Shown one piece after another: positions 1-56,900 of a stretch of 64,000 nt of DNA. The first letter of the stretch is position 1. The number at the start of each line of letters is the position of its first letter. Under the pieces are notes generated by a model. It searched no databases. It saw only the letters and a program-made list of their open reading frames with translations, and had not been told where the DNA came from. Origin of the DNA: Chamberlinius hualienensis (taxonomy: Eukaryota); contig BAAGAE010000030.1 in the NCBI GenBank assembly GCA_054772095.1, forward strand, positions 87,335 through 151,334, in the 5' to 3' direction. Both the position numbers and the translations under genes were made by a program.

Positions 1-1526
1 CTTAACGGATTTTCTGTCAGCTTTTTTTTACACACATTATTTTGTAAGTTTACGTGAGAGGGTCACTCAGAAAGTTACTATGCTTCTTTTCTTTCTGTCG
101 GAGTCATGAATAATATTGAAAAGGACGATTTGTATGAGTGACATCAAACTATGTCTCTCTAACCTCTCCCCCTCTCCTATTTAATAAAAAAAATGTACAT
201 ATAAAGACTTCAATTGGGGATGGTTGGGATTGGGGGAATATATATATACATAATGGATGCACTAGATGGGGGGAGGGAAGAATAGGAGGAGTGGAGATGA
301 TAGGAGAGTTATATTTGCGCTACCAAGTATTCATATCAATGCACTTTTTATGTCGATAAAAGTTTTTACAACTCAGGTCAAACATCAGGTCACTCGACAA
401 GTTTTACCTTGGCTGGATATTCTTAATAAGAAGTTTTCTTTGTAGGCTTTTTTTTTAAGGTTAGATTTTAATTTAAATGCGCGACAGGTGCTAAAATTAT
501 TGTAGTTAATTTACTTCGTATTATTATTTTAAATCTGTACAAGCGAGTAGATGTTCGGGAAGAACTTTCGTGACGTTGTGGTGACGCGACATGCAAGTTT
601 AATGCAACGTATATTTTTTGATCCTATTGCGATTGTCACTTTCAGTCAACAATAAGAGAGATATGGTTCTCACCCATTTAATCATGATGTTCGTCATTTG
701 AGTGTTTATTTATGGCAGTGACCATCTTGTGGTCAGCTTAGCTGGATACTTGCCAGCTGGCATTTAACAATTATTATTATAAGCTTTATTTATTTTTAGC
801 GACATTTGCGGTATTATATGAGCAAAAGACTCGTTTGTTTCAATTTGCCTAAACTCTTAAAGGCAAGATATTAGCATATCTTAGCAAGCTTAATCCTGTC
901 GTGGAGTGAATTTGTGTGGTCGCCATTTTGTTAAAGAAGTTTCGTGTGAAAATGCGTGTTTAGACACTAAAAGTGAGGTCAAAAGGTGGTACTGTTTTAT
1001 TTTTTTATATGTATTTGTTATACCCGATTATTGCGCTGTAAAAATAAAAAACTAGAAATGGGAAAAGACAAAAAAAAAATTAAAATGCAAAAATAAAATA
1101 AAAAGTTTGGTGATAAAAAAATATACGAGCAAAGATAATAAATAAAATAAAAAAGCACAATGATGAGTTTAAAAAATGCATTTAAAACAAAAAGTAGGTG
1201 TATAAAGATATTAGGATAATGGTTTGAGAGATAGTCGAATTGTGGGATGTAAAGAAAGTGCTGGTGGTGGTTGTAAAATGCTTTAATTGGTGCTAATAGG
1301 CCGGCCATTTAAAAGATATTTAGAAACATTTTATTGTTATGTTTTCTTTAACCAGTAAACGCCATATTTACATTTATTATGGCGGTGCATTGTACATGTA
1401 CACGCAAGCAAGCAAGCCATTTTTTTTGATACCATTCATTTTTATGCTCTTATATTTTGTCTGTCTTTTTAACGCTTTTTACACCATTTTTATTATTACC
1501 CGCCATATAAAAGAACGTTTTTATGG

Positions 1527-1546
1527 CTCTCTCTCTCTCTCTCTCT
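1527..1546. repeat. (CT)10 microsatellite immediately followed by a CRE palindrome
   Basis: Direct reading: ctctctctctctctctctct followed by gacgtca. Confidence 0.95.
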
Positions 1547-1553
1547 GACGTCA
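1546..1553. promoter_or_regulatory. Perfect CRE palindrome TGACGTCA
   Basis: Direct reading. It abuts the (CT)10 repeat. Confidence 0.5.
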
Positions 1554-2259
1554 TTATACGACATCAATATTTAGCCTTTGTTAAATTTGAAAAGTAATTG
1601 AATAATTATTATTGGTCAGTTATTACATGACTTTTTATTGATATATTTTTTTGCTACAGTTTGTGGTAATGATCAAATTGTTATAAACTTTACATGATAC
1701 AAGTAGGTGTGACTTAAGCATATGTGTGTTTGTGTCGGCAAAACAGAAAGGAAAGGGGTGTTTGGGGTGGTAGAGGGAGGAGAACGTCACTGTTATGTGT
1801 TTATAGTATGTAATTTTGTTTTTCACCTGTTGTTACATAGTTTTTCTATACTTTTTCCCCTCCCAGCATAAATACTGTGTTTATTCTGTGTCGCTCTGTG
1901 GCCCCTCATTATTTCCAATTAAAGGCCTCCGCGTCTCAAAATGGCGGGTTGTTTAAAGGTGAAAAGAGCGCGAAAAAGGAAAAAGTGGGAGTGGTGGGGG
2001 ATTGAGTATATGTTGGCATCGATTATGGCTGCCCTCGCTACAAATATATAGGGTCTCGGCAGGGGATTGTTAAGCCTATAATTTGACAAATGAAAACGCC
2101 TACACTTCATAATTTTCCATTTTTTTCCATCCTTCGTACTATCTCCCACAATCACTCGGGGGGCTATTTTACCTTACAGGAAAATGTCTTATCAAAATAC
2201 CATGGTCTATCTTTTTTTTTAATATGTGGTGGTGTAAATTGCAAGTTGCAGATGCAACA

Positions 2260-2267
2260 TGACGTCA
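2260..2267. promoter_or_regulatory. Perfect CRE palindrome TGACGTCA (aTGACGTCAt)
   Basis: Direct reading. Confidence 0.5.
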
Positions 2268-4623
2268 TCAATTTGTAATGAGCATGTGTATGGTGTGTTT
2301 AGCCGTTTTCCATAATGTCTTAGTATACACGTATGAAGCTCACTAGACGTGTAATTGCAAATTTATTACCCGGTAAATTGAATGAGTTAATTAGCAGACG
2401 ATGTTAATAATGATCCGCCACGTATTTTATGTCTTTACATGTGGGGGTTATAAACTATAGCAAAGGGGTTGATTGGTGGAGGTGTTTAGCAGGGCATTGT
2501 TATTTCTTTTAAGTATACGAAACCTGCTGTAAATCATTCTTATAAATACATTATTAGGAAGAATAAATGGTCCAACTAAAACGTGTACAGTATTAACATT
2601 GCAACACAAATAAAAAAACAAATTGGATATACAGTATAAACGACTCATGCGCAGAAGTGCTGTCTAGTCGTATGACGTAGTGCGTATTGTTAGTTCAGCT
2701 GGCTTTATAAAAGAAACCAACGTGGCTATGTTACTCTTCGCAACTTGTGTTTTGAATATATTGTAATTAAGCAATATAGCTGCGAATTTGTTATGCTGAT
2801 ATACATTTCGAGAATTATTTATTTTATGGTACGGTGGTATCAAATCTATTTATCCGAAATTTGCAGTTGAGCAAACACTGTTTTGAAAGCAGGTTCGTAT
2901 ATGTAAGATACAATTTTAATGGCTGCGCAAATTGTTTACATTTCTCTCTTTTTTGATGAAACACTGTTAATGTTAGCACCGAACTTACAACACACTTTTA
3001 AGAAATAGCAAGGAAGTTAATCATCGTTAATTACGTCATCGATAGCATCTGGTTTTTTCAAAGGCATAAATTGACGTGCAAAATTTGAAGGTGGATCGAT
3101 AAGTAGCAAAACGAAGAATGGGATTTGTAGCGATTTAGGGTGTAGAAAAAAATTAGCTGAAACTGTTAGCAAGATTTAATTATATACAAGGTGATTAATG
3201 ATCAACTTGTCAAATTAAACTCTTTGCATCCGGTCTGTATAGAGGGAAATATTAAGGTGTCAGAATAATTTTTATATAATTATGAACCTTACAGAAGCTA
3301 CTCGGAAGGGCTACATGTCGGTGTTTATTTGGGATATTGTAACGTATGTTAAATTTTCAAATTTGTAGCAGTTTTAAATGTTATACAAAATTGTTTTTAA
3401 AATTAAATTAGCGTTTGATATCTTATGCTATTAGAGGCTTCTAAATTATCTCGGTGACCATGAGTTTCTATAATACAGTAGGTCTCGTGTATTTGGTCAT
3501 GAATCGCTCTGTGTTAAAATTTTGATGTAAAATGTTTGTGTGTGGGCAAATGCGGCGTAATTATAGCGTGTAATTGCACTAAAACTGCATTCTACTCTCT
3601 CTATAATAAAAAGTGGCAATAAACAAAAGACAAATTTTTTTATGTGGATTAAAAAAAAAATATAAATGGCAATTTGCTTTGGTGTTTTTTAGTTGTGCTT
3701 GAGCGGCTTCTGTTACTTGGGCGTCAAAATGTGATAACGGTTTTTTTTTTTTGGAGTATTATTTAGTTTTTTTTTTGTTTAAACGCACTGTAAAGTTTTT
3801 TAATGCTCGGTTGGATTTTACAGAAATTTAATATTATTAATTTTTTAAAAGTTGTTTTCATTATAGCTTGAATTAGTTATTAGTGTATTCAGTTGCAAAC
3901 TGCAGCCGAACAAGCGACACCTGCTTTTACGAATACAAATCTGCAATGCAAATTAATTTCAAAATATAAATTACGGGGATGTGAAGTCATGCCAACTCGA
4001 CGAGTTAATTTGCGTATACGTGAAACTATTTTATTTAATCTATCTCTTCCCTCGAGGCTTCCGTAATTAAAAGTTTATGTCGGACTGCGGTTTTTTTACT
4101 CAACGGTTGTTAGAAACCGTCGCCATTTTAAGTTAACAAGCAAAATACTATGTCTGACGGATGCGGAAATGAGTACAAAAGTAAGAATCAAATTGCGCGT
4201 TATTAGAAAATTAATTTTCAAAAATTGCCTCAGCCGAGAAAAATTCTGTAATTATTAGCTTAAATGTTAATTCAGCCGTACAGATATTTGTTTACAATTT
4301 GGGATCTTCATTTCACGCTGGTGATCCGATACCAATGTACTGTAATTATTTTTGTTTTTGCGTCCAGTAAATGAAGTGCTAATATGATCATTGTGTGTTT
4401 TAATGTGCGTGTGGTCTGCGTATAAATAAATGGGAGTGTCGTTTGGATGTGTTAATAAAAGCAAAAGCTGTAGCAAATTAATGACGCTTTAATAATTAAT
4501 GGATAATTAACATAGACCGCTAATGGACGTTGCTGATATGCAGTAAATTATCCATATTATATCTTTAAAATTTGTAATTACAAGCCAAAAAAAATTTTAT
4601 GTTTGAAGTTTGCTGTATGTTTA

Positions 4624-6776: not shown

Positions 6777-9102
6777 TATTCCAGTTGAATTGTTTTGTAG
6801 ATGGTGGAAAATTGGGTTGGCGTGACTGCAAGTGATCCATCATTTCTCAAGCGTCACTAATAAGTGACGGTTGTTAATTTGAAGCGGATAAAAGTGCGGA
6901 CGCAGAGAGTGAAAGTAAAAAATAAGCGTATCGTTTTTATCGTGGAAATTAACTCTTTCGTTTAGTATGCAAATTTAGTTAATTGATGTCGCATTTTGTA
7001 TTTTGCCAAACACTTCATTTGCATATCTTCACTTTTTTTAATTGGCTTATTAATTTCCATTTGGCGAATTATACCTGCTATTACGCCGTCTGCCACTTGG
7101 CAAGATAATCAAAAATGGCAGAAGTACTTATTTGATGGCCTCGCATTTAGCAACTCGTATTAGGTTTTTATTTAGTTAGTCATTTTGAAAACTTTTAATA
7201 AGGGACGTGTCGATTTTAATAATTATTAGAGGGTAATTAAGTGGCGCTGTATAGGTACTTATATATTCGGTTTTAAAAAAAATCTTCATTCGTATGCCAA
7301 TTAATTTGGTATCTATTAAAGGACAGCTGATTAAAATTAAAGTGGATGGTTGTAAAACGTTTGAACTATTTCAATTCTGTTTTTTCTTAATTGATCGGTA
7401 TGATTTTCCACATAAATTTTCGCATTTCACTTAACCGGTCTTTCACCTGATGTAATTACAGAATTTGGAATTCTTAGAATGTTCAAGTTTTTTTTTTATC
7501 AATTATTTTCAATTTAACAATTTTTTTATTTAATATTTATTTTGTTGTAGATTTGAAGTTAAATTTCGCATTTAAAGCATTGATATAATTAATCCTAATT
7601 CTTTTTTTTAAATTTTTTTAACGATTTAATTTCCACACATGAATTTATACTTCACATGGTCTACGAGATTTAGAATGTGGGATTTTTTTTGGTTACGCAT
7701 CCTAGGGTTAAACTTTCCTAACGACTTCATCATTAATAAGGGTTAGAAAAACAGCGGTTTCACCATGAACACTCGTGTTAGAAGAAAATTCCATTTAGGT
7801 GAAATGTCTGAGGGTAAACTGCATAATATTAAGCTGCTTGGGAAATTATTGTTGTGGCTAATACCCTGGCAGTATGACGCCTTATTAGAAAGCTTATTAT
7901 TTTTCTGGCTGTTTTCGTAAAATCAATTTGCATGGAAATGTTTCTCAACTTAATTTTTTATTTTTTTTTGCTGTGCCAAACTTCATTTGTACGAACTACG
8001 GTATGCGTACAAATTAGTATCCACTCTTTGAAGTATCACAATTAATATCAACTATTAAATTAGAAGGAAAATCAAATTTGTTAGTTGATATTTTCGTTGC
8101 TATAATGAACGTTAATGAATGCGAATGCTTTAACTGGGATATTAACTGGGTTTAAGAGACTCGACAGTGTATATCATCGAAGAGAATATAACCTTCAGTC
8201 ATTAATCTTTTTTAAATGGAGGATTTATTTTTGAAGGATATATTGTAAGATAATTTAGCAAGTATTAGCCAAATGATCTACAGATTAACAATCATACAAT
8301 GAAATTGGCGTGTATAGAACAAAGCATGATGAAATGTCATTGAAATGCAGCGCTTCTTTTTACCTGGCATTACGCCACTTGTAGAGTTACTTACTCAAGT
8401 GAATAGGTGTCCTTGTGCCAGCCAGATTGCTGCTGCGTCGTATTGTTATGGTCACTTAACACGCGCAACTTAAAGTTGATATTATCACGAAAGAAAGTAG
8501 AAAAAAATACATTCCTAGTCTCAACAGTGCCATATTGTTTGAGCGTTTATCAAACATGGCGACGACTTTTATAGTTGTTTAAGTAGTCAGCTACATCTTT
8601 CTGCTCCCCTTTTTCCACTGCTCAAAATAATCTTAAAAGATATGCGAGAGTTGATTCATTATCGCGAAAGCGTCTAGTATTTTTTTTTTACTGTTTTCTT
8701 CTGCATTTACGTAATTTATTAGCAGATAGATTTTTCAAGTCTTGTGTTGGTTGTCGTAGTTGTTGGGCTTTCCTAATTTTAACTTGGTTTAATTTTAGCT
8801 TGTTCAAAAAGCTGTCGAAAAATTCTCCACAGTCTTCCCATTAACAACCATGTTGTCAACGGGTAAAATTTGTGTCTCGTAAATTTTTAAAAAGCCGCAA
8901 GCATTCTTCCGGAAGAAGCGTTTTTTATTACCAAAATTGTTAAGAATAGTTCCATCAACAACTAAAGCCAAACAGTTTTTTTTTTTGTTTTGAAATTTTT
9001 TTTGAAAATATTTGTTTAGTGTTGTCAAATGTTTATGCTTTTTTTTTTGTGGGTGTGAAAATTGATGGCGATAATAATAATACCGTAATTGTGTTTTTAC
9101 AG

Positions 9103-9605: not shown

Positions 9606-9876
9606 GTAAGTGTTAAATAATTTATTAAATTTTTCTTTAAATAAATTAACCTATATTATTACTCGTTTGTTTTTAAGTTTTTTTTTTTTGTGTGTGTGAA
9701 AAATGTCGACACCAACGCCCATCACTTTTTTTCTTTCTTCGTATGTTTAGAATTTAATTTAATATCGATTTGCTGCTGTGAAAGTTGTACAATATTTTTG
9801 TTGATAAAAAAAAAAGACAGAAAATCGTGACATAAATAATGTCAAGCAAGCTGGGACCTGATTTTTTTTACATCCG

Positions 9877-9888
9877 GTGGCGCCACCT
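9877..9888. promoter_or_regulatory. 12-bp GC palindrome GGTGGCGCCACC (a CTCF-like GGTGGCGCC core on both strands)
   Basis: Direct reading. This is a rare GC-rich 12-mer in an AT-rich context. Confidence 0.4.
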
Positions 9889-11397
9889 CTTGTCACACGC
9901 GTTGCTCCGCCATTTTGCTCTTATCAAATTGAAATGTCAAACAATTCCCTCAGCACCAACATTTTCTTTTCTCTACGTTTTCTTCCATTTCTTCTAGTTT
10001 TTATCTGTACTTGTGTTTTTATTTTATTTTATGTTTTTTTTCTTCTTCCTATGGCAGGAGAGTGAATTGAAAAACAAACATGCAAGCAGACAGAAATGCA
10101 TGTCGTCAAATGTTTCCGCCATGTTGCTCACTACTTTCAGCCTATATCGATTAACAAATTAAATAACAAGAGTTTAAGGAGGGGAAAGTCATTACTGGGA
10201 TGTCATGCATAACATCATTTGAAGTAGTTTCACTCTTAATACTTCTAATAGAAAAATAGCTAGATTTATCAGCAGTAAACACGAACCTATTGACGTTCAG
10301 TTGAGTTTAGCCCAAATGAATTTTGAATTTTTTTTTTATTAGATTTTACATAATGACATGGGTATTAGCAGGCAGCATGGGCACTTGGCGTGTAACTTAA
10401 TTAAGAAGTTGTTTGTGTTTTTTAAAACTCTCTTACAAATCGTTTATTCTCCACTTATAAATTCCTTGTTTGTGTCCTTTTCTTTTATTTATGTTTACCA
10501 CCCTACATTACTTTCCTCCTCCCACATCACTATCTCTTAGACTCCACCTCCCCCCTTCGACATGTTTTATTTATTTAGCCAACTGTTTTCTTTTTCTAAC
10601 TTCCCCAACAACATCACTTCTTAGCAAATGTGAGCACGCGTCAAAAGTTGAATCGCTACAAGCACATTTTTAACTATTTTGACCGCGTTGGCAAGTGACA
10701 TAAAAGGAGAGAGGGACGTGGTGTGGGGATGGGGATGGGCTGAACCGGGTTTTAGTTGGGTGAGTGGGGGTAAAGTGAGTACTGTAGAGTGAAGTAGAGA
10801 AAAGTGGGGTTTTGAAAAATACTTCAATTCGATATAATGTTGAACAGTGAGTCGTCAACGCCACTGATGAACAAACGACATGTATATAAGTTAAGGAGTG
10901 TGGGGAGGAGAAGGGGGGGGGGAAGAGTAGACATTTTGTATATAGGGTTGGAAGTTTGAGGGGTGTGAGTAAGGAGAACGAGGGATTATATTTCTTTTTA
11001 ACTTCACACTACACCACTGAATCGTCTTTCTTTAAGGATGTAAACTTTTGACGCTTTTTGCTTTGCTCTCATATTTCTTTACTTGAGGTTTTTTTTTTCT
11101 TTTTCATTCCCTTCTCTCCCTCATTCCTCTTATTCTCTTTATTAATACACACTGAAAAAAATTTCGTGGTCTCTTCTCTTCCACCCATACCCCCGTCAGC
11201 CTATTTCCAACCCACACGACACACACTCAAATAACAAATGTAACAGCAGCAGCTGCCAAAGATAAACACAAGATTAATATACCCCACATTCTCAGCCTCC
11301 TCATTCACCCAAAACACAACTTTCAACCCCTCAACCAGTCTGATAACACCAGGCTTTATTTTTCTTCTGGCTTCAAATAATAAATACTCGTTTGTTG

Positions 11398-11405: not shown

Positions 11406-12897
11406 TAAGTGGTTTTTGACGCTAATTGCTCTGAACAAGTTTGTCAGTGTGTTTGATATTAATAGGTTGAATTTATTTACGATGTGACGAGAGATGTGAA
11501 TGCGCTGCGGTTGGATGAATTGAGGGCTGCGGAGAGGAGGAGGGGGTAGGGGAACAGCTATCGTATATTAATGCTAATATTAACAGGTGAATGACGTAAT
11601 TAAAGAGTGTAAATATTTATGGCTAACTAATAACGTGAAACAGATGCACTACATTTTTGCAGTAATTTGGAGCAGAGACAAGGTAAGGCCTTGTTTAACG
11701 CGTTAAATTCCCTCCAGAGAAATATCGTGTAATAAAATGCCAACTAACATTTACATGACATGGACAACAGAAAAACGAGGCCAATGTAATGTATTTATGC
11801 TGTGGGAAGTTCCTTCAGGTAGCTTATTAAAGTGACCTTAACAGGTTTTTGGATTAGTGGCGACTGTTAAAAGGTCTTTGTATGGTCATCTGGTGACAGT
11901 TTTAATGGTAATTGCCATTTTTAGTTTTGGTTTTTTGACTGACACGCAATTTGGATATCTGAACTTGCTAATTAACATTATGTTTGTGAAAAGATTATAA
12001 TTTTCTACTTCAACAGGTTGGTGTGATGCAATGCAATTGGCAGTAACATTTTGACATTGACAGAAGTTAAATTAGTTGAAAAAGTGGTTTAATTCGCGAG
12101 AAGGACGTTGATACTCTATATTCCAGTTTCATAAACATTAAACAAGTTATTAAATAGTAATTAAAATAAATGGCGCGATCGTGTAATTTAATTAGCGGCG
12201 TTAGCCAATTGCTTGTAATATTAGTCTTTGCTCCAGTATTACATAACTTTCTTGACGACATCCAACAATGTACAGTACTTATACGGTATAATGTACAAAA
12301 GCTCGACGAAATGATGTTTTTATAACCTTAATATAATATACTGGAGTAGTAAATCGTTCTATAGGTTTCCTTTTATAAAAGGCGATTCATAACTAAGTTG
12401 TCAAATGTTAGGGGAATATTATATACAGTAGAGTTGGTAAACGAATACGGATAAAAATGAAATTTTATATGAAAATTCAACGTTAATTTTCAATGCCATG
12501 TTTAGTGATGTTTTCACAAGAACTTCCACGTCTTATAGGTTTTATTTGCTGCCTGGTAACATGATATCGTGTCACAATAAAATGAAAATGTTGGTTTAAA
12601 ATAAAAAAATCAGGAATAATTACGGTGGATTTGTTATTTTACAGTAAGTTTGTTTGGCAGTAGAATGAACGAAATCTGACGGCTAGGGAATTGTTACAGT
12701 ATATGTCACGTTTCAATTAACCTTTCGTTTGAAAATTGAAAGGCAGAGGTCAACCTGTGTTAATTTGAATATTAAATTGAGGTCAACGTTAAGGGGTCAT
12801 AAGCAACACTTGTATCAAAGTTTACAGTAAAAGTCAACATAAACAAGCCGCTGAAGTACATTACCATAATATATCTGGGAATAAATACGCTCGCTAA

Positions 12898-13460: not shown

Positions 13461-14720
13461 AAGGAAATTACCCCTTCTTTTTGGTCATGTCTTTCGTCGG
13501 CCATTTTTATCTCAAACGTTTTCTTAAGGAAAAAAAATTTTTTTTTTTGTTGTAATGTTTAAATTGGACTGCAAACGTTGAAAAAGACAAAAAAGTGCCC
13601 TCCTGCGGTGAGCGTTGTTTGGGAACAAAAATGTTACTAATAATCGGACAACTTTCGTCACCTCCCAGTACAAGTTTTCTTATTTGGTTTCACGAAGTAT
13701 TTCCCCTTTTATTTCATCCACCCACTTTTTTTTTTCTCTCTCTCTATTTATTTATCTATTTTTTTCACTCTGTGGTTATAGTAACTTTGGCGTCAAAGAA
13801 AAACAACCTATAATTGGCACAGGAGAAAAATGTTAATAATGTAAGGTGGTTAGTCGTCACGTTTCTCTGTAATTTAGTAATTAAATATCAATCAAGAAAT
13901 TTAAGAAAAATTAAGGGAAGTTAAGAGGTTTTTTTAAAATATTTTATTTAATGGAGTATAACATGTTGTCTTATAATTTTTAATCATGGCTAATTATAGT
14001 TCTCGTCTGATGATGTTGAAGGAATTTTTTAATATTAATTTAATTAACTTTCAACGCTATAGCCTCGTGATCATTATGTTAGACTGTTTTTTTTACTTAT
14101 TTATTATAAAAAGCATCTTTTAAAGATAAATTGAAACTATTTGCTGTTATTTTTGGGCTGTACTTGTCGTTCTTGCAGCTAATTAAATGATATAATGACG
14201 TAGATTGACGTTGGGTGGCGCCATTAGCACACTCCCACTCTTTATTCCGCAAAGATTTTTTAATTTATTTGAATGTAAAGTAATAATAACTTCCGCTGGG
14301 TATTTATCCTCTTTCTACTCCTCCTCCCCATCCCACTTACAAGTCAAATTGCAAACAGATGAACTCGAGCGTTTAATTGCGTCCAATTTGTCGGTTAGAC
14401 AGCCGGAAGTTCAACCGTTAAGCGTATCAGCTGCCTTCTGGTGTGGGAATTACAAATGGTGGTCGAAAATTGATGTTGAAGTAATTTACAGACACATTAA
14501 ATGCGGTTAAATTAACGTATATATCGCCTTTTGTGTTTGGACGGAGGAGGGGAGAATTCGTATGAAAGGATTAGTTTTAACTAGACAATTAATATTTTTT
14601 TAATTTGTAGGAGGGATATTTTTACTAATGGTAGACTAAATCGATATTATTAACGTACAGGAAGTACGCCACTTTATTTAATTTTAATTCAGAAAGAAAA
14701 ATGCGATATACGTTTTTAAA

Positions 14721-25807: not shown

Positions 25808-26009
25808 GCGCCATTTTGATAGCGTCTGGTCTCATTTTATTTTAGCATCTACTTCCGTTTATCTAATTTATAATTAATATTATAAGACGATCTCGATAGT
25901 TTTATGCATTTTCTTCTGGCGTTTTTTTTATTATTACTTTTAAATCTGTTGCGTTGTGGAAGCAAAGCGATACACAAGTATATATTTAGTATTACCGCCG
26001 CCATTTTGA
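25808..26009. promoter_or_regulatory. Pair of Pho/YY1-like sites (GGCGCCATTTTG at 25808 and CCGCCGCCATTTTG at 25996) about 190 bp apart
   Basis: GCCATNTT is the YY1/Pho core. Both copies carry the same extended CGCCATTTTGAT. Confidence 0.4.
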
Positions 26010-42500: not shown

Positions 42501-43746
42501 GTGATATATTGGAGTGTTCTTTTAATGGTATAAATCACAGTCAGTAGTTGCACTTGTTTAATAAATTGTTTAGTGTAAATATATTCTCTGGAGCTCAACT
42601 TTGGTGAAAGCAGGGTGTTTGATAAAATAATCTTCTAGTTTTTGATCCTCTCTCTCTCTTTTTCTTAATCCGTTTTTATTGTGTTGCTTTAGGCAATCCG
42701 ATTTAATCCTCGCAACGCTTTCGGCGGTGCGTCTACCGTTGATAAATGGCCGATAGATGGCGCATTTTCTCAGGAGGGGGATTTGTTGCCATCGTACAAA
42801 TTAGTCGCTTCCGAGGTAGCGCCACAACCGACACTTTTGAAACCATCGAGGGAATTTAGTTTTCGATATTTAATCCGATGTTTTTGAAAAACACAACACC
42901 TCTTCAGCTTAGCAATCTCAAAACACAAACACTATACCTATCACACATCTTTTTAATAGTATTAATAATGTCGGATGGAGACTAAGGGAAAAAAGAAGAT
43001 GATTGACAAAGCGTTTAAACGATCGTTGTCAATGGATCGACCATCTTATTTGACACATTTATACAGCTTCGTTGCATTGCGTTAAAGCGTTTTTTTATTG
43101 CCACTTGTGGTAATGGCGGAGAATATATATATTTTTTTCTTTTAATTTAATTATGAATGCCTTAAGATGTCCGCTTAAAACGATTAAGTGTACGTGTCGA
43201 GGCTGGCTATGATTTTGATTGCGTTATATTATTTATTTACCACTTACCGTCATCATTCACCGCTAGGAGCAGCGTCTTTTTTTAACCGTCACTTTTTGAA
43301 ATATTAATTTTAACCTTAAAATGGCTGCTGTTACTTTTATGCGGTAGAAATGTGCAGCCGTTTAAGTGTTATGTATTGTGTCTCGTAAATAAATGATAAA
43401 TTAATTCGCTGTACAGCAAACGCTTACAACTAATTAATATTTGATCAAGGTGCAACATTAATTATTTATGAATTAATTTGTTAGCCTATTTATCCATCTA
43501 AGCTTCCTTTAACGCACTACTGTTCTGCGAATGTCATTAAAATGTAGTCTTAGATTGAAAACTCATTTTCTTCCATTTAGTTTGACGTAATGTCAATATT
43601 TTTTAAGCAAATTTTTGTGTAAAGTGCCGCGGAAGCTTGATGTCTGTTAGGGATTTATATTTGTCAGCATATAAATCAGTTGCAAGTACATCGAAATCCC
43701 TCTCCTCTCTATCTGTCTATTGTTTCTGACGTTGACAGTTGGCTTG

Positions 43747-43754: not shown

Positions 43755-45071
43755 CTTTGCCGCAAACGTCAGCTGAATAATAAAGCACAAATCCATTTAC
43801 CAAATTATAAAAATAAATGTGATTACGGAATCGCATGTTTCTTTTCTCTTTTTTTTTTATCATTATTTTCTTTTTTTTTCTCTGTGTTTCTCCCCCCTCG
43901 CTCTCTCTTTCTGTCTATCTATTTATCCGCCATCTTAATGTTTCTCTACCCAATCGATTTTGGCGTTGTTGTTTTCGAGGGGTTCTGTGATTGTTAAAGC
44001 GCCATCATATCCACTAGGGACATTCCCACAATCCCAAAACAACAATCTTTTTTTTTTTTTTATCTTGCTACGTAATTCAAGATGGCGTCTCTCCCACCAC
44101 CACCCCCTCACGTCCACCAATCCCTGATCTTAAAAAAAAACACAAGGCAAGTTGAGCGTCTGACTGCGTGTGTGTACATTCCCATTTATTTTTGTTTGCT
44201 TTTTGATGGGGTTGGCGCGCGTATTTTATTTCATTATCGAATCGTGCCATATGACTTCTTATCTTTCACAAGGCTTTCTCCATCCCTCTACATAAACCCC
44301 ATATACTTATATATATATATATTTGTCCTGTCTATGTGTTTTCTTCACTTTCTGTACATATACTGTATATATATATAAACTTTTTTTTATAACGTTACCG
44401 TTCTGCATCGTGCATAGTTATTATGTTTCTTGGTATATTTGTAACGCTCAAACGGCTCTGCTTAGATGCTTAGTTGCTCGTACAATCGATTTTTTTAATA
44501 CAAGATTCAGGTTGGCGGTATTGGGCCACGCAAGAGTCGAAAGTGAAGTCGAAAAGAGAGATGACGAGTAGACGTTACGTAAGATGTGTTGGGTGACACG
44601 TAATAACTACAACAGTCAGTGTTCACCATAATTTGCTGTGCTATTTACGACTCCATCCATGTCATTTCCCCCATCAGACGCCCTAGCTAACATTCAACTC
44701 TAATATGATTGCTGAGTGTTGGATAATCGCCTAAAGGGAATATAACAAAAACCCAAAAGGGAGGCTGATGACTGACTTTGAATAGGGCGGTTGACAAAGG
44801 GGAAGGAACAACTCTCTTCATTATATTATTAGTATCGGCATACAGATGAATCTTTATAGCAATTTAGATATTTCTTTTTTTTGGTTGCTTTTGCTCTATT
44901 ATTTATACATCCATGCAGACTGAAGGAGACAGGGTATTTGATTTGGCTAACGTTGTGGGGGAGGAAAAAAAATCATCTGCTAGATATACACGTATATGAT
45001 AGATACACATGAAATGGTAACAAATGTTGTGCAAATAGAGTTGAATATTAATTGTGTCTAACATGCGTTAA

Positions 45072-46437: not shown

Positions 46438-46438
46438 C

Positions 46439-46469
<31 letters not shown>

Positions 46470-46544: not shown

Positions 46545-47530
46545 TTTGCCTTGTAACTAGCCTTTTTAATTCGATACGCGATGCTCGTTACGCAACTTAA
46601 TCACGTAATAAAACCATTTCGCTTCTTTTCCGTTGGCAAAACAACGTTTCATTTACCGCCACTGGAAAAAAAAACTTAATTTCCACTACAATTTCATTGG
46701 GGGAACGCAAAAGGAAAAGTAACAAGGAAAAAAAAATTTGGGAAGTTTAGTGAGAAAAAATTTAATGGAAATTTAAAGGAGACAAAAAAAATTTGTTTGT
46801 GTTTACTGCGCAGGCGTAGTGAAGAATTTTATGACTGTTTTATCAGCTGTTTACAAAAAGAGAGAAGCGGTGTTGGTGGTCGTTTGACGCTGGATTAACG
46901 TTGTTAATTTGTACGCATGCATGACAACACTAGTAAAAGAAGGGGAAAATGTTATAAAAAATTGTTTTTGCGTGTAATAGTATGTGTGTGTTTATTTGCG
47001 TGAGGGATATATTCATTATAGATTAAAATAAAGATGGAAAGGGGGGAAGAAGGTTGGCATTATTTTAATATATGTACCTACAGTATATATCTATGAAGAT
47101 GGCGTTTATTTGTGTGTGTCTGTGGGAGGGGAAAGATGTGATGCGAGGGCAATGTAATAAGTTCGTTGATGCGTAAATGAAAATGATCCTTATTACATAT
47201 GTCACCACGCCAGCTAATCTCTTTTCGCTCATAAAAAAGGTACTTGATCGTCGACAGAAGGGCCATTTGGTTGATTATCTTAGGCGAGCATTATGCTATC
47301 TCACCCCCACTGCCATTTTTCTAATTCTCACATCATTTTTTTTTTCTTCTCCCTCTCATTTTTCTTACATATTTTTTATACACACAAAAAGATGTTGCTT
47401 CTATCAATACACAATTCCCTTAACTATGTGGCTAAACCGCTCTTAGCCTCTCTCACTCTCGCTCTTTTATGTGGCCTTACGTAATGTCCTTTGCCATTTT
47501 TACATTATTCATGAGTTCGGTAGTCACCGT

Positions 47531-47538: not shown

Positions 47539-48001
47539 TTTAAGATTTTTTTTTAATACGGTGTAAACTGCAAAATATGGGGTAGAATGGAACATCAAAT
47601 TTTTTAGTGAATTATAACATACGTGTGCAACATTATGATGGCGTGTCTTATGGATATTTGTGGTTGCAGGTGTTGTAAATTGAAGCCAACAGAGGGCGGT
47701 ACAAAAGAGAAGGCGGGGAGGGGAAATATTTAACTTTTAATAAAGCACTAATATTATACGTCGGTTAGAAATGAGATCAAGTTGCAGGGTTTCAATATCA
47801 ATGGCAGCAGACGTTTTCTCTCTCTCTCTCTCTCTATCTTGCTCTTACTTTGCTTTTATTTACCTTTTAAAAAGCTAGCACGCGTGAGTATAGGCGTGGT
47901 TTATGGCGCCTTTATAGTCTATGTGGCTCCTAGTAACGCCATTCAACGACAACTTTACACGTTCAATCTAAATTGTTCATAAATAAATAAATATCGGCTT
48001 C

Positions 48002-48019
48002 CGATAAATCGATTTATCG
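48002..48019. promoter_or_regulatory. 18-bp perfect palindrome CGATAAATCGATTTATCG (CGATA motifs on both arms)
   Basis: Direct reading. The sequence is identical to its own reverse complement. Confidence 0.4.
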
Positions 48020-48757
48020 ATCTTTTTTTCGCTCTCTCTACCTTTTGTTAGGATGGTTATAGTTTTTTATTGTTTGGTTTAATGACCCAAGTGGTAGATG
48101 ATGATGGTCATATTCACTCTTGTCAGCGGTTCGCGTGGTCGGATGTGGATAAATGCAGGAAATGAAATTAGCACACATTTTATTTTAGTAATTGAAATAG
48201 CAAAAAAAAAAAAAAACTTAGACCAACTACGCATGCGTATACTGTGCGCATGTGCGGATGGTGAAGGGATTTGTTGATTTGTAAATGTTTGCTATGTCAT
48301 AATGTTGTTGTAAACTGTTATGAAAGGACATCAAAAAAAGTTTCAAATAGCTGCGTCATCGTTTGCGAAGCAACTTCATACTTAAGATTTAAGCTGCCAT
48401 CTTGGTTTTCTTTTCTTTTTTTTTTGGTGTGTTGTTTGTCTGTTGATGTGTGGTGTATTTGATTGGATTAAAGTGTTGAGGAGAGATGTGTGGAGTATAT
48501 GGTGAGCGTGTGAAAACGAAAAAGAAATTAACAGCGCCCTCGTGTGGTGCTAAATGTGTGTGTATAAAAAGAAAATGGCTTTCCCTAAGGGAATTATATA
48601 AAGTAGCCTCAAACTCACTCTCTCATGCTACCTCGTTATTTTCCTGGGGGTTTTTTTTCTACCCTTTTCCAAATATATGGATGTCCCTCGAAATTAGATA
48701 CAGGGCGGGTTGACTGGGGTATTTTTTTAATCTACTTTGCGTTGTCATGACGTCATG

Positions 48758-48765: not shown

Positions 48766-48772
48766 AGGTGGC

Positions 48773-48856: not shown

Positions 48857-49829
48857 TTTGTTGTAGGCTATCAAAGTGGAAATGAAGCGCTTGGGCTTTT
48901 TATATTGAGAAACGTTGCATCGTATAAAAAGCAGTTTATTGCGTCGTAAAAAGCGCGGGAGAAAACGACTTTATCATTTTATTGTTAATTTCGGCGTTTT
49001 TATATTTTTGTTTTCACCCACACCGCCCCATTTAACCGCTAAGTTAACTGCCAAGCTCCACCCATGTTTGTTTACTGTAGGAAAAAGCCTTTCAATTACA
49101 CGTCTAATCTTGTGCAAATACAGACGCAAATTAATCAGCTGTTAATTAATACCATTTTTTTTTATTTTTTTTTGTAAGAAGGCAAAATGTGCCTTTTTTG
49201 ACGCTTTAAATCTTTCAAGATTTATCGAGATGTTTTTTTATTGGTTTTTTTACGAGTGGAAACCGAAGAGAAGTTGTACATATATGTTGGACGTAAAGCG
49301 CCCCCTGGTGCCTGTCGTTTGATGTATTAACGACATCTATTGGCAAAGCTTATGACGCCATCATAGCCACCATCTCACCCATTTATACATATATATCCTT
49401 CTATACCAAACATTTTCATCGCCAAAAGGGATTTATCTGCGTTGATGTTCTCATCTAGCAAAATCGTTGACGTTCTCCCTCACTCTTTTTTTCTTTCTTT
49501 TTTTTTTGGATTGCGCTGCATGAAAGATGTATAAAAAGACAGAACGATGAAAGAGAGAAACGTAAGAGTGGGATGAGGAGGGGATTCATACACGTGTATG
49601 TTGAAAGCAACAGTACAGAGCTGACTTTTTTTTTACTTCTTTTTTTTTTTTTATGCAACTTATCAATAGTTTCGATCGATATGTGAGCTGGGTAATCACC
49701 ACCAATCGTTAAACCTTTGATCGCCATCTTGTGGCCACTTTCCTTAACATTTTGAGGTCAAAAAATATACTAAAAAAATCAATGAAAAAGTGAGAAAGAG
49801 GAAAACGAAATGACGGGTATTTCATATCT

Positions 49830-50822: not shown

Positions 50823-50841
50823 GGGGGGGGGGGGGGGGGGG
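50823..50841. repeat. G19 homopolymer
   Basis: Direct reading. Confidence 0.9.
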
Positions 50842-51605: not shown

Positions 51606-54600
51606 TCAGTTTAAATTTAATATACTGTATAAAATATTTATGTTGGTTTACTCCCAAATTTCTGTAGAAATTGTTTAAAATGGATTGTAATAGATATTTT
51701 CTTGCTCTTTAAAGAATAGTAAATTAAAAGTACTAAGTTTAAATTAAGGGTATTAAATTGTTGACATTATCACATTATTAAATTAAACATTTTGATGACA
51801 CCGTGTATATAATATTATGTGTGGAATACAGCGCCATCACTTTTATCTTTTAGTTATAAATTTATTCAATGGTGCTGAAGCTAGAGCTTTTTTTTTATAC
51901 TGGATATATATATTTATATTCCCCACTCTTTTCATTCACCAGGGGGCGTTATCTGCATATTTTATTCTTTACATCCTCCCAACTAAAAAAAATACTATAT
52001 ACTTTATATACATGGAAGTAGTGATAGAAAAAGACATAAAAAGTGCGAGTATAACTGTGTATATATTGGAGAATTTTCTTTAGCGTCATTTTTATTCTGT
52101 GTTTCCTCCATCTAAACACTTAATCCCAGCCATTTTCAACACTTTCCACAGTCACCACCTTCTATAATATGGGGGTGGGTCGAGGTGAGTATGTGTGTGT
52201 CTGAGTGAGGGGTGGCATAAGCAGGGAGGAAAACGAGGGTTAAAGGATTTAGCAGTTGATTAGGAAAGTGAAGGGAAGAACATTTAAGATTTACTCGATC
52301 ATCATCATCCATTTTGAGCTTCCGTATCCATCGTTTTTTTATATACAGTATGCGAGCGTATTTTTTTCTAGCTTGATCCTTTTTTATGTTATCATCGAGC
52401 TATCTTAGAATTACTCTGTATATATTTATATGTATGTATAAAAAAAAACTTTGCCATTGTGTCGCTGTTACGATTTATATTGTCGTTTTTATATAAAGAG
52501 GATTTTAAATTTACTTGCTAGTTTATGAGCGACCCCAACCGGCTGCCATTTTAGATATTTTCTTTTACTTTCTCTCTCTGTTTCTTCGTCAATTTAATTT
52601 GAATGCAGCAGACCGTTTTCGCTGTTGTTCACTGTGGTGGGTTTATATGTTGGATGGGGAGGGGGGGGAACTGTGTAAGATGTATATAAGGGGGTGGTTC
52701 ATATTATTTTTGTGAAGATGGAAGAAAATGTACGGAAGCCACGAATGGATACATAAGATAATGTCATATTCCCTCGAGCTTTCGATGTGGGGTGGATATT
52801 TTTTTCAACAAGGACTTATGAGGCAACGTAAAAGTCAAAGGGAAATCCTTCTTATTTTTCACCCTTTCTTTCCCCCGCCACCTCATCTTCTCTTAGTCTT
52901 CCCTAGGGCGAAGGGGGAGGGGGAAATAAAGAAAAAAATAAATGGGTGCTGTATATGAAGACTTTTATTTTCTTGAAATGTGCGGTTGCTGAAATCCATC
53001 TTATTTTATGGTCTGGAAACGAAATGAAACGTGAAAGCACTCTTCCTCCTCTTTTCTATTTTTACCCCCCTCCACCGCCAACCTCACCCCTTAACAACAC
53101 TCAACCATTTTTTATAATATACTTTACCCTCACTCAGCCATCATCTTTACGCTATATTTATTCCCTTAAACAAGCTACTGAAACAATTCCGATAGATGGC
53201 GCTTCATTACAAACGCCAACTCACACTACATATACACTACTTTTTATGTTAAACTATACTAACATTATAATTATATTTTTCATCCAAACTTACTTAAACT
53301 GTTTTGTTTACATTCAACATTTCACTTAAAAATAGTTTTAAAGTATTAGTTGTCGCCATTTTGCTACATCTGCTTTTTAACGGTGGTGCAGAAACGACAG
53401 CTGAATCTTATAAAAACACATTTTCACTTTATAACAGTTAACTGAGAGGGAGTCAGTTGTAAATATAGTTCAACATTTTATATATCTACAGTATATGCAC
53501 TCGTATAAGTGTGCGGCGTTGAAATTGTACCGCAAATATAAAAAAAAAACAATTTGACGTTGGATGATAAAAAATGTGGATGTGAGTGTGTGAGAGACGA
53601 TTTCCTGTTAAAGTTTTAACTCTCATTTCAACAATAACAACACAGTGAAGAAAATATATATAAAAATGTTTAGGGAAAGCAAATATTTATAATTTATTTG
53701 ACTAAAAGTAACCTTACGTCTTCCTCCATTGACACAACCCACTTTATTTTTATTCTAAGGGGAGGTTGGGGGTGGGCCAAATGGAAATGTGATAGTTGTC
53801 GTTCATATTTTATTCAGAGACATATGTACGTGTGTATAAGAAATATAAAATACCAAATATATGTGTGTATATAGTATATATACACTATATGTGCGAGTGG
53901 GGATGGGGAGTAGGTGTTTTGTCAAATATTCTAACTTTGAAGAAAGAAAAATAAAATTGGGAGAGAGTCGGGAAAAAAATTGCATTAAAATATGATAATG
54001 CAAAATATATATATATATATATGCATATGACGTGATGCAAAGAATATAGATTGAGTTTTTTTTTTTTTGTGACATTGATATTTACATAGAAGAAAACCGA
54101 ATCCATAGAAAAATGTCATCTTTTTTTTTTCTCATCGTCAATACTAAAATTCCTTGCACCATCTTTTATTTTCGTTATCAATTTTTTTTATTTTATCGAA
54201 AATTTGGTAAAATAAAATTGGATTTTTTTTACCATATTCTTTCTACTTCTTTGAATGAAATATTTAAATAAGTTTAGTATACACGAGTACGGATCGATAA
54301 CATGTATTTACTTAACGTCAACAAATGTAGAAACTTTTTTTTTATGCAGTATATATATATTTTTAACATCGAACATAAGTTATATAATCAATTTTCCGCA
54401 CAATGCAAGCTTTCAAAGTTTTAATTAACAGTTTATACTAAATTTATATTAATGTGAGGATTGTACTGTAGTTACATTTGTTGATTTTGAAAAAAAATTT
54501 CATTTTTTTAAGAATACAGTATGTTTGCGGCTTTCAATAGAGTTTACTTTTTTGGGGGAAAAGTAATAATCTGTTCGAAATACTTTTTTTCCTGGAAATG

Positions 54601-55157
54601 AATTTTATTACTTAATAAATATGTCTAATGAATGAACCTGTCAAGAGTACAGTATATTAATTTAAAAGTATGAAGCCATCTTTTGCGATTTATCGTTTCG
54701 ATACTGCTTATATAAATTTCAATCTATTTGAAATGAATGTTTATTTACTTATTTACGCAGCACTTTTTATCTCTCACTCTCTCTATTTCTGCCTTGTTCT
54801 TTATATTTTTATTAGCGATTGAAAATCGATCGATCGTAAATTGTGTGGTGAGTAGAGTGTGAACGTGGCTTCTTTATAGGGCCAAGGGGGAAAGTAGGAG
54901 TGGAAATTGGAAAGTGTGGGGAAAACTGTTAGGTTGGTGATGGTTAGATTGAAGATGGTTGGTTGTTGGGGGGGAGTGGGGGATAGAGTGAGGGAGTAAG
55001 GCGTGTGTGTGAAAGAAGGGGGAGGGTGGCGAGAGTATGATTTATGTAGATGTTAGCAATAAAGATAAATTGCTCTCCACTATCGCATAGATTGGCTCAT
55101 AAATTCTCAGTTAACTGCTGTGTAGAGGGCGCTTCATTCATCTCGTGCGTCTGGGAG

Positions 55158-55347
55158 CCGCCATTTTCATCTCTCGTTTTTTTTTATCTCATTTTTTTTA
55201 AATACAAATATAAAGGTCGATGTTGGATGGATGAAGGTTTTTATTAGGATTTGATGCGCGATTAAAATGGAAGGAGGAGAGCTTTTATTCGTATTTGTAT
55301 ATAAATAAATAAATTACACGGTTTTTTTTAATTTATTGCATTTTTTT

Positions 55348-55389
<42 letters not shown>

Positions 55390-55471
55390 AATGTTTTGAT
55401 ACAGTTTTTGACGTTATTGTGTTTTTGTTTTGTGTACTTGATTTGTGTGTGTTGTATGGCGGCCATTTTGC
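55158..55471. promoter_or_regulatory. Pair of Pho/YY1-like sites (GCCGCCATTTTC at 55158 and GGCGGCCATTTTG at 55459) flanking the (TC)19 repeat
   Basis: Direct reading. The GA/TC repeat (a GAGA-factor-type element) sits between the two GCCAT sites. Confidence 0.4.
55349..55386. repeat. (TC)19 microsatellite
   Basis: Direct reading. Confidence 0.95.
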
Positions 55472-56689
55472 TATTAGGAGGTTTGGTTTGCTTTGGCGTT
55501 CTAGTTAATTGAGCGGTCGCACTGTTTTATGACCAATTAGGATGAAAGGCTGCCATTAACAGCGACAAAACCTCGACCATTTTTGCGCAGGCGCATTGAA
55601 GCAATTCGAGCGTGAAAATTGGCGATTTTGATACATAGCGTCAGCTAATAAATCAAAATACTTCTGGCCGAATTTTTGTCTCAAAAGAAGGAAAAGGAGA
55701 ATGTAGAAAATAATGGCGACCTGTATTTATATAACTGAAATCTATTTGTTGCATAATGCAGACGACAAGTTTGACATCTGTTCGTTTCTAAAACGCACTC
55801 TAATTAAAAAGGAATGTAATTAACTAGAAAACAAGGCTTGCGTGACCCCCCCCTCTCCCCCCATGCTGCGCATGCTCCCAAGTGTCAATTTACATAAAAC
55901 TACGAACGCCCATTGCTTCACTTCTCGTTTGTTGACACTTTTGTCAACGTTATCGAAGCGTATCGTCCCAATTGTTTTTCTTACGGCCAGTCAGTTGTAT
56001 GACGTGTTTATTATGCCGTATTTTTACGTCAGAACTGGCAAATTGTCAACGTTTTCACATCTAACATGATTGCTTTGGTCATTCTTAATTATCATTTTGA
56101 CGCTGAATGTTTTAAGCCACAAATATTAAATCGCAGTGGAGGAGGGATTAGCGTTTTGCGTTTATTGATTAGTCAAAAGAAATAAATTTTTGTCAACGTT
56201 TTATGACATTTATTTGGTGAAGCGTAAATGAAGTAGTAATAGCAGCGTCTAATTATTAATTAAGGATTTATCGGCGTTTCTACGTTGACGCTGAGCTTTT
56301 AATTGTTAATGTCGACAATTGCAAGAGCAAATAAAATCATTAATCAGCCGCTTAAAACGATTTTCCTTTTTCTATGCGTCCTCTGGCGGCAGTGTTGGTG
56401 GCTGCAAACAGCTCGTCAAGAGTCGTTTTGAGAAAAAGGGGGGGGGGGGGAGTCTAATTAAACTGTTTAATTAATCCATAGGAATTGATGGAGATGATGC
56501 TAATAAAAGGTCTTTCTCTATGGCGCGTAACTAGCAATTTTAATGAAAAGGATTAAAGCACAAGCCGTAAAAAAAAAAAAGATTGTGGCGTCCTCTGTTG
56601 ACGTTGAACTGGTGAAATGGTATAGAAACGATGAAGAGACGTTTAGGAACTAAATAAAACACGTTACTTTACTCTTGTAATTTGAAAAA

Positions 56690-56900
56690 TGGTTGACGAC
56701 GAATAGTGGGCGGTGGTATATAGTTGATGAAGAAATGTTTTTCGCGCGTCGTAAAAAACAAGATGGCGTCGATAGGAAATCGGGTCGCGACAAAAATGCA
56801 TCTCCATATTTCCACGCCACATTTTATGACTTTTATACGTCGTCGTCGAACATCGTTTAACGCTCGATTTTACACGATTTTCAACAGTCATCTCATTCCA
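56690..56900. promoter_or_regulatory. CpG-enriched segment with an AAGATGGCG (YY1-type) core, about 600 bp upstream of exon 57489. Candidate internal TSS region.
   Basis: cgcgcgtcgtaaaaaacaagatggcgtcgataggaaatcgggtcgcgac...cgtcgtcgtcgaacatcg. Confidence 0.3.

Follow-up and report, generated by a model that had tools for sequence, protein, structure and literature searches.

Sequences resembling the recognition site of the zinc-finger protein Pho/YY1 recur along a stretch of 64,000 nucleotides from Chamberlinius hualienensis (contig BAAGAE010000030.1, positions 87,335 to 151,334; hereafter the window), where nearly all of them lie in a predicted long intron of an AUTS2/tay-like gene. An initial annotation of this DNA took them to be the mark of Polycomb response elements (PREs). 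The locus thereby raises the question of whether the sites exceed chance, whose binding specificity they carry, and whether they are laid out as a PRE would be. The answer that we favor, with a probability of roughly 0.45, is that they are scattered, genuine and mostly high-affinity Pho/YY1 sites, biased in orientation, which would be bound directly and would act, if at all, in a manner linked to transcription, and not as canonical PREs.

The excess of YY1/Pho-type words

The word GCCATTTT occurs 25 times in the window (21 times on the plus and 4 times on the minus strand), against 4.87 +/- 2.17 in dinucleotide shuffles, the richest of which held 12. Markov models of order 3 or 4 raise the chance level on both strands together from the approximately 5 of the shuffles to 9-12, and the figure of about 2-3 given in the initial annotation was too low; its claim that the word is enriched is nevertheless borne out. 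On the plus strand alone, strand-specific Markov simulations yield 5.5 (order 3) or 7.5 (order 4) copies as opposed to the 21 observed, and an order-5 model shrinks this excess (13.4 expected). The degenerate family GCCATNTT behaves similarly, with 48 members (37 plus, 11 minus) versus 18-21 under the order-3/4 models; here the 37 plus-strand copies compare with 10.5 (order 3) or 12.8 (order 4) and a simulated maximum of 24, and the 11 minus-strand copies, against an expectation of ~7.8, are not significantly enriched. When all 840 permutations of the same composition were counted on the plus strand, GCCATTTT was by far the commonest (21 copies versus a mean of 1.2), and the runner-up, with 8 copies, proved to be an overlapping shift of the same word. 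Likewise, TTT follows GCCAT with the highest following probability recorded for any of the 731 common 5-mers. Ranked among the non-low-complexity word families of the window, GCCATTTT comes approximately fourth: TGACGTCA and TACTGTAT precede it, and the CTCF-like AGGTGGCGC stands level with it. The enrichment of the YY1/Pho-type motif, at about four times the chance level, is real.

Longer and alternative forms follow the same trend. The 12-mer GCCGCCATNTTG is matched 33 times with at most two mismatches, as against 7.7 +/- 3.0 expected, and 13 times with at most one, including a single perfect match at 25997-26008. The word AAGATGGCG is found eight times where 0.29 are expected, three times on the plus strand (44079, 47096 and 56760) and five times in the other orientation, reading CGCCATCTT on the plus strand. 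A recount also amended the list of sites first drawn up for this DNA. All 14 plus-strand positions named there do hold GCCATTTT, within 1-4 nt, and seven further sites had been missed (1416, 9909, 11914, 16556, 18576, 47493 and 52129). Two of the reverse AAGATGGCG sites (47095 and 56759) stand, a third, placed at 44088, really lies at 44079, and the fourth, at 1937, reads AAAATGGCG; the five copies in the other orientation were overlooked. Nor are the sites mostly of the extended form CGCCATTTTG, which has six copies, amounting to 5 of the 21 plus-strand GCCATTTT sites and one on the minus strand; the form CGCCATTTT accounts for 9 of the 21.

Specificity of the sites

A scan of single substitutions defines the positions that carry the excess: it depends on GCCAT and on a T at position 7, any base is tolerated at position 6, and position 8 is only loosely specified. 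Substitution at any of positions 1-5 of GCCATTTT brings the plus-strand count from 21 down to 0-7, approximately the expected level. At position 6, by contrast, every base is in excess (A, 5 vs 1.8; C, 8 vs 0.8; G, 3 vs 1.1; T, 21 vs 3.8), the C variant being GCCATCTT, with 8 observed versus 0.8 expected. The sites accordingly have the degenerate base after the core and the subsequent T(T) of the form GCCATNTT, which reads AANATGGC on the other strand. On the 5' side, G is present at -3 in 13/25, C at -2 in 13/25 and C at -1 in 10/25 of the sites, with a background of 16-19%, and a G follows CGCCATNTT-type cores in 11/31 cases. Because the substitution scan and the flank preference come together in it, we take GCCGCCATNTTG as the consensus of the motif.

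This is the consensus of the long high-affinity YY1 site, of which GCCGCCATTTTG is an instance (PMC4901126, Table 2), and the 5' GCC flank, the 3' G and GCCGCCATTTTG itself are all present in the window; CGCCATTTTG was the consensus YY1 probe in an earlier study (PMC1904287). Insects other than flies are reported there to have Pho zinc fingers that hardly differ from those of vertebrate YY1 (PMC1904287). Literature matches to the word were mostly primer sequences. The position-by-position specificity of the sites is that of YY1/Pho, and the initial designation of a Pho/YY1-type motif is supported at the level of sequence specificity.

Orientation of the sites

The share of sites on the plus strand is 84% for GCCATTTT (21/25), 77% for GCCATNTT (37/48) and 77% for the strongest sites (10/13). 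Composition leads one to expect 55-62%, which the 84% of GCCATTTT exceeds with p=0.003-0.014; equal enrichment of both strands would have given 12-15 minus-strand copies of this word, and 4 are seen (P=0.001-0.008). Expressed by strand, the fold enrichment is 2.7-5.6 on the plus and 0.9-1.8 on the minus strand. The bare core CGCCAT is symmetric, with 31 plus and 26 minus occurrences, and it is the full consensus after CGCCAT that differs, being present in 17/31 cases on the plus versus 5/26 on the minus strand (Fisher p=0.007). Thus, the strand asymmetry significantly exceeds composition but is not uniform. The initial annotation had listed most of its sites on the plus strand and drew no inference from it.

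Small antisense open reading frames starting at the Kozak-like AAAATGGC were tried as a candidate and rejected; with a median of 13 codons versus 10 for other minus-strand ATGs (p=0.05) their excess in length is not clear, and there are no long ones.

Arrangement of the sites and the PRE interpretation

The gaps between sites are Poisson-like (coefficient of variation 0.96), which rules out regular spacing, and average 2.3 kb over 56 kb, with a site about every 1.5-2.5 kb. The sites had been described as often paired, which is not seen above chance, there being 2 gaps of at most 300 bp versus 2.6 expected (P=0.78). Cores are not clustered either: the densest 500 bp hold 6 GCCAT, as compared to a mean maximum of 5.3 when the 136 cores are placed at random, and 18 GCCAT cores lie within 150 bp of the sites versus 16.9 expected. 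Raw GAGAG matches near the sites looked raised (46 vs 23, P=0.013), an association that we rejected as an artefact of overlapping matches in two microsatellites; if every GA/CT run of at least 8 bp is counted a single time, 4 sites lie within 150 bp of one versus 3.3 expected (P=0.41). The TC repeat reported between two paired sites does exist, as (TC)17.5 at 55351-55385 between 55160 and 55462, but the GAGA association that was read from it remains this single instance.

Other candidate partners fare no better. Motifs for Zeste, Dsp1, Sp/KLF, Grh and Cg (GT-repeat) near the sites gave P >0.19 throughout when compared with random positions, and a search of the window for the EN1 motif found no occurrence at all; the clustering with GAF/GAGA, Zeste and Dsp1 motifs that the initial annotation proposed to look for is absent beyond chance. 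Words resembling the cAMP response element (CRE) and CTCF-like words are uncoupled from the sites both at 150 bp and at the nearest-neighbor scale, and the sites do not fall in GC-richer, module-like patches. That AUTS2 belongs to PRC1 in vertebrates, as the initial annotation remarked, says nothing about the cis-sequence. With neither clustering, nor pairing, nor partner motifs beyond chance, the arrangement of the sites is not PRE-like, and the PRE-like signature claimed for them is not supported.

Work in Drosophila assigns the extended motif to Pho/Phol sites outside PREs, of the promoter type, which lie at active promoters and are bound according to how good the motif is (Kahn et al. 2014, PMC4091789). 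Drosophila PREs, for their part, carry GA repeats, only sub-optimal sites and several bare GCCAT cores that show no preference in their flanks (PMC4091789). The window shares with Drosophila PREs the Pho (GCCAT) sites and a few spots that combine cores with CT/GA runs; it differs from them in that PREs are clusters of mostly sub-optimal cores together with sites for GAF/Psq, Zeste, Dsp1, Spps, Grh and Cg; neither the clusters nor the associations are above chance here. The spots in question are at 1.3-1.55 kb (six GCCAT cores, (CT)10 and a CRE within ~250 bp), at 47.0-48.1 kb (CT runs, a pair resembling the DNA replication-related element, DRE, and GCCAT cores at 8 per kb) and at 55.1-55.5 kb (a strong site on each side of (TC)17). 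They are weak candidates for PREs or promoters, and their existence is within chance expectation. That canonical PREs, with Pho clusters and GAGA repeats recruiting PhoRC, PRC1 and PRC2, are present at least at these three spots is an interpretation that we consider improbable: the combination of several cores with CT/GA runs speaks for it, but the core density and the pairing stay at chance level, the GA runs and the other partner motifs are unassociated, extended high-affinity motifs characterize Pho sites outside PREs (PMC4091789), and an orientation bias is no property of PREs. Polycomb domains do contain dispersed weak Pho sites that are able to function as PREs (PMC4965088); at most, the sites described here could serve as weak dispersed Pho landing sites in a large regulatory domain.

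Two of these spots have additional features. The DRE-like pair ccgataaatcgatttatcgatc at 47985-48015 lies in the stretch with the highest GCCAT density, along with CT runs and a CRE, and the 47-48 kb stretch could be an internal promoter or regulatory module. At 55456-55470, ~75 bp 3' of the (TC)17, two YY1 cores overlap as the inverted repeat ATGGCGGCCATTTTG, placing a core on both strands.

A predicted non-PRE mode of binding and its precedents

Under the reading that we favor, the sites would be the recognition sequences of the Pho/YY1 zinc-finger protein of this species, with the form (G-C-C)-GCCAT-N-T-T-(G), mostly extended and of predicted high affinity, isolated along the AUTS2/tay-like intron and, in about three quarters of cases, reading GCCATNTT on the presumptive sense strand. 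Pho/YY1 would bind each site directly by DNA recognition, which is the non-PRE mode (Kahn et al. 2014), and not in the cooperative PRE mode that needs Sfmbt/PRC1, clustered weak cores and GAF. The array might then act on the host gene in an orientation-dependent, transcription-linked manner, for which the first intron of Peg3 offers a documented parallel.

The likeness to the extended YY1/Pho-Phol motif of non-PRE Pho sites (GCCGCCATNTTG; Kahn et al. 2014) extends to the GCCAT core with the required T two bases on, to the tolerance of any base at position 6 and to the preference for a 5' GCC, and the isolation of the sites would suit binding driven by motif quality (PMC4091789). Unlike the Drosophila and human class, which adjoins the transcription start sites of active genes, the sites here are distributed over 56 kb of intron, with no start-site evidence. 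In the Peg3 first intron, YY1 sites are irregularly spaced and in one orientation, which is conserved between species, and the array is an orientation- and dose-dependent activator (PMC2615030). The Peg3 imprinting control region array (CSE2) and the present one have in common multiple intronic YY1 sites, irregular spacing and, for most of the sites here, a shared orientation. They differ in that Peg3, a methylation-imprinted mammalian locus, has at least 6 sites in a 2.5 kb promoter-side CpG island, all in one orientation, while the arthropod intron has ~48 sites over 56 kb, ~77% of them in one orientation, and no CpG island. A dense promoter-proximal cluster of the Peg3 type is not found in the window, given the 2.3 kb spacing and a GC content of 28-39% along it.

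Several points weigh against this reading. The bias of the whole family is only moderate (37 vs 11, with ~60% on the plus strand expected from composition). Functional transcription factor sites usually cluster in modules, and here they show a Poisson spread that ignores GC-richer patches. At Peg3, the parallel, the sites form a cluster of 2.5 kb in a CpG island beside a promoter and not a scatter over 56 kb. The enrichment is absent from the four insect AUTS2 loci described below, of which the samples are short and mostly 3', and the excess could be a word bias of the species as a whole.

If the sites are bound and conserved, the locus would illustrate, in compact form and free of repeats, how YY1/Pho acts in an orientation-dependent way inside a gene in an arthropod other than a drosophilid. 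It would carry further an idea for which the imprinted loci of mammals have so far been the main documentation, and would allow a test of whether Pho binding driven by motif quality (the non-PRE mode) plays a part at a distance from promoters. Should the excess amount to no more than a genome-wide word bias, it is an ordinary finding and a caution against calling PREs from GCCAT counts. In either case, motif composition alone, without clustering and partner motifs, is no indication of a PRE.

Comparison with insect AUTS2 loci

For comparison we collected the AUTS2 loci of four other species, all insects (including Dendroctonus, Gryllus and Ranatra), with 10 kb flanks and the gene oriented plus; these loci are short and cover mostly the 3' part of the gene. 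They contain 0-1.2 copies of GCCATTTT per 10 kb, versus 3.9 here, and none of the four shows an excess of CRE or CTCF words. The strong excess is hence not general to insect AUTS2 loci, short and mostly 3' as these samples are. For GCCATNTT the four loci show no sense-strand enrichment (12 copies versus ~9 expected) and a slight antisense depletion (2 copies versus ~7 expected, p~0.03), which hints that AANATGGC is perhaps disfavored on the AUTS2 sense strand in insects generally.

Alternative explanations of the excess

The main rival explanation, possible though on balance unlikely, is that the excess reflects a bias in word usage across the species or the region without locus-specific function, the sense excess arising from transcription-associated compositional or mutational asymmetry, so that GCCATNTT, like TGACGTCA and GGTGGCGC, is merely over-represented in an AT-rich, repeat-poor genome. 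Such a bias would accommodate the even scatter over 56 kb without modules and without any link to GC-richer patches, the joint enrichment of several unrelated CpG-containing words, the T- and G-rich plus strand, the smaller excess left by the order-5 model and the weak antisense deficit at the AUTS2 loci of insects. It does not readily explain why a 3-4 fold plus-strand excess survives both the strand-specific order-3/4 models and the same-composition permutations, and mutational bias would not predict substitution and flank preferences that mirror YY1/Pho specificity; moreover, what the order-5 model learns from is to a large extent the motif itself. A quite different function would be at the level of RNA, where the sense pre-mRNA would present GCCAUNUU to an RNA-binding protein, or to YY1 itself, and the processing of the very long intron would be influenced. 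We find this quite improbable: although the excess falls only on the sense strand of an intron that is transcribed, and evenly spread sites would fit a role during transcription, a GCC flank together with a free position 6 is the profile of a YY1/Pho DNA site, CGCCAT on its own is in excess on either strand (31 and 26), neither recursive splice sites nor Rfam elements were found in the intron, and we know of no RNA-binding protein with the motif GCCAUNUU. A separate and somewhat less improbable reading is that the high-affinity sites form an intron-wide, sense-oriented Pho/YY1 'track' on the arthropod AUTS2 orthologue, co-transcriptional or architectural in nature and dependent on orientation, perhaps together with the plus-biased CTCF-like sites, and neither a PRE nor a promoter element; we doubt this, but were it true, such an oriented array would be a new regulatory layout.

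Descent from a repeat was also weighed, namely that the sites are relics of an old dispersed repeat or transposon with a YY1 box that inserted preferentially antisense in the intron. Intronic transposons are often biased in orientation and some retrotransposon promoters carry YY1 boxes, and two of the sites, at 20197 and 34343, have 18 nt in common (ACGTyAGACGCCATTTTT). Against this, the flanks of the sites are visibly unrelated, and a repeat-family search of the window returned low-complexity families only and essentially no dispersed repeats. Local alignments of flanks of up to 120 bp score no higher among sites than among random controls (mean 11.6 vs 12.0, p=0.99), and the information content falls to ~0 beyond three flanking bases (past -3). 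Membership of a single dispersed repeat consensus, which the initial annotation itself had named as fatal to its proposal, is thereby excluded; a repeat-relic origin is largely refuted, and we hold it to be very improbable. The 18 nt shared by 20187-20208 and 34336-34354 consist of the half-CRE-like ACGTCA and a YY1 site, and may be a composite element or a coincidence.

The host gene and the coordinates of the sites

The 3' end of the window encodes exons of an AUTS2/tay-like gene (Table 1). One of the downstream exons matches the Pfam Auts2 domain (PF15336, E=2.9e-8), and a protein search with the joined exon translations recovered only distant insect Auts2 matches, from Gryllus, Cryptotermes, Dendroctonus and Ranatra, with 58-79% identity over short stretches only. 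Ahead of the first downstream exon lies an acceptor at 58755/58756 with a polypyrimidine tract (...tttcatctcatttacag|GTGAAACC), and a strand skew of T>A and G>C is seen on the plus strand along the whole stretch. Because of these downstream Auts2 exons, the canonical acceptor and the skew, positions 1-58,755 are predicted to be one long intron, transcribed on the plus strand. The window has a GC content of 34% and an observed/expected CpG ratio of 1.05, and no CpG island. Rfam gave zero matches in the window, that is, no structured RNAs, and no recursive splice sites were found in the long intron. When metagenome contigs were scanned for the Auts2 exon with wobble positions left degenerate, in search of a close relative, no match was returned.

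Table 1. Candidate YY1/Pho sites and other features of the window; mismatches are counted against GCCGCCATNTTG
Positions	Strand	Feature	Remarks
1-58755	+	Predicted intron of AUTS2/tay-like gene, at least 58.7 kb	5' end open at window edge; carries nearly all motif sites
919-930	+	YY1/Pho site GTCGCCATTTTG	1 mismatch
1361-1368	+	GCCATNTT variant CGCCATATT	In the six-core spot at 1.3-1.55 kb
1416-1423	+	GCCATTTT site	
1937-1948	-	YY1/Pho site CCCGCCATTTTG	1 mismatch; plus strand reads CAAAATGGCGGG
4122-4129	+	GCCATTTT site	GTCGCCATTTTA
7112-7119	-	GCCATTTT site	
8529-8536	+	GCCATNTT variant	
8553-8560	-	GCCATNTT variant	GTCGCCATGTTT
9906-9917	+	YY1/Pho site TCCGCCATTTTG	1 mismatch; ~20 bp 3' of palindromic CTCF-like GGTGGCGCCACC
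10115-10126	+	YY1/Pho site TCCGCCATGTTG	1 mismatch
11914-11921	+	GCCATTTT site	
12495-12502	+	GCCATNTT variant	
13500-13507	+	GCCATTTT site	
16556-16563	+	GCCATTTT site	
18576-18583	+	GCCATTTT site	
20197-20208	+	YY1/Pho site GACGCCATTTTT	ACGTyAGACGCCATTTTT in common with site 34343
25556-25563	+	GCCATNTT variant	
25807-25818	+	YY1/Pho site GGCGCCATTTTG	1 mismatch
25997-26008	+	Perfect 12-mer GCCGCCATTTTG	High-affinity YY1 consensus (PMC4901126, Table 2)
26572-26583	+	YY1/Pho site GCGGCCATTTTT	
28380-28391	+	YY1/Pho site TACGCCATCTTG	
30850-30857	+	GCCATNTT variant	
33838-33845	-	GCCATNTT variant	GCAGCCATCTTT
34343-34354	+	YY1/Pho site GACGCCATTTTT	
35424-35435	+	YY1/Pho site GCGGCCATTTTT	
37766-37773	+	GCCATCTT	CGCCATCTT
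38016-38023	-	GCCATNTT variant	
38746-38753	+	GCCATNTT variant	
38968-38975	+	GCCATNTT variant	
40514-40521	+	GCCATCTT	CGCCATCTT
43318-43325	-	GCCATTTT site	
43926-43937	+	YY1/Pho site TCCGCCATCTTA	
44078-44089	-	YY1/Pho site GACGCCATCTTG	1 mismatch; AAGATGGCG on plus at 44079
47096-47104	-	CGCCATCTT	AAGATGGCG on plus; in the 47.0-48.1 kb spot (8 GCCAT cores per kb)
47312-47319	+	GCCATTTT site	
47493-47500	+	GCCATTTT site	31 bp 5' of a TGACGTCA
48393-48404	+	YY1/Pho site GCTGCCATCTTG	1 mismatch
48572-48579	-	GCCATTTT site	
49720-49731	+	YY1/Pho site ATCGCCATCTTG	
52129-52136	+	GCCATTTT site	
52542-52553	+	YY1/Pho site GCTGCCATTTTA	
53352-53363	+	YY1/Pho site GTCGCCATTTTG	1 mismatch
54675-54682	+	GCCATNTT variant	
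55157-55168	+	YY1/Pho site GCCGCCATTTTC	1 mismatch; ~185 bp 5' of (TC)17 repeat
55351-55385		(TC)17.5 microsatellite	Potential GAGA-factor target; the only long GA/CT run with a site on either side
55459-55470	+	YY1/Pho site GCGGCCATTTTG	1 mismatch; overlaps inverted second core ATGGCGGCCAT (55456-55466)
56759-56770	-	YY1/Pho site GACGCCATCTTG	1 mismatch; AAGATGGCG on plus at 56760
58756-64000	+	AUTS2/tay-like coding exons	3' end of window
58756-59983	+	410-aa Ser/Thr/Pro/His/Asn-rich exon	AUTS2/tay-like coding
59165-59176	+	ACCGCCATATTG	Within coding exon, probably incidental
61.4-62.3 kb	+	Conserved exons, one with WCAMHVRIAWEIYNHQQK	AUTS2/tay-like coding
61917-61924	-	GCCATGTT variant	Exon/short-intron part, probably incidental
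62.95-63.1 kb	+	(Arg-Glu/Lys-Glu) repeat exon	AGAGAA-type tandem repeats (Tandem Repeats Finder)

Other over-represented words

The joint over-representation of the CRE TGACGTCA, the CTCF-like AGGTGGCGC and the YY1 words, in unique contexts within the large intron of a neurodevelopmental gene, resembles the dense cis-regulatory landscapes (genomic regulatory blocks) that surround developmental and neuronal genes. The words here do not gather into modules, and what defines those blocks is conservation.

The CRE palindrome TGACGTCA is the most over-represented non-low-complexity 8-mer of the window, with 20 copies between 1546 and 58278 versus 0.7-4.2 expected, depending on the model. All copies are in unique flanks and often continue with a T, and six of them fall between 47531 and 51605 (4.2 kb), a clustering that is not significant (P=0.09). 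The CTCF-like word (A)GGTGGCGC has 10 copies (8 plus, 2 minus) versus ~0.5-2 expected, at 9130, 9876-9887, 13300, 14214, 16895, 26647, 29421, 37589 and 46536. Several of these reach the CCASYAGRKGGCRSY consensus, for instance CACCAGGTGGCGCT at 46.5 kb; the palindrome GGTGGCGCCACC stands ~20 bp 5' of the YY1 site at 9906, and GGTGGCGCCAT at 14214 overlaps a GCCAT core. A further word, TACTGTAT/ATACAGTA, is represented by 26 sites between 2629 and 57326 (15 + 11, versus ~1.8 per strand under the order-3 model), often in a TATA-rich context (tataTACTGTATata).

Homopolymers of G and C are the remaining conspicuous feature, the 6-mers GGGGGG/CCCCCC numbering 92 versus 17.7 expected. Six G/C runs of 10-13 nt lie at 10913, 15374, 27333, 37867, 42168 and 56438, and the two longest, C18 at 46438-46455 and G19 at 50823-50841, lie 4.4 kb apart and bracket the CRE-rich stretch.

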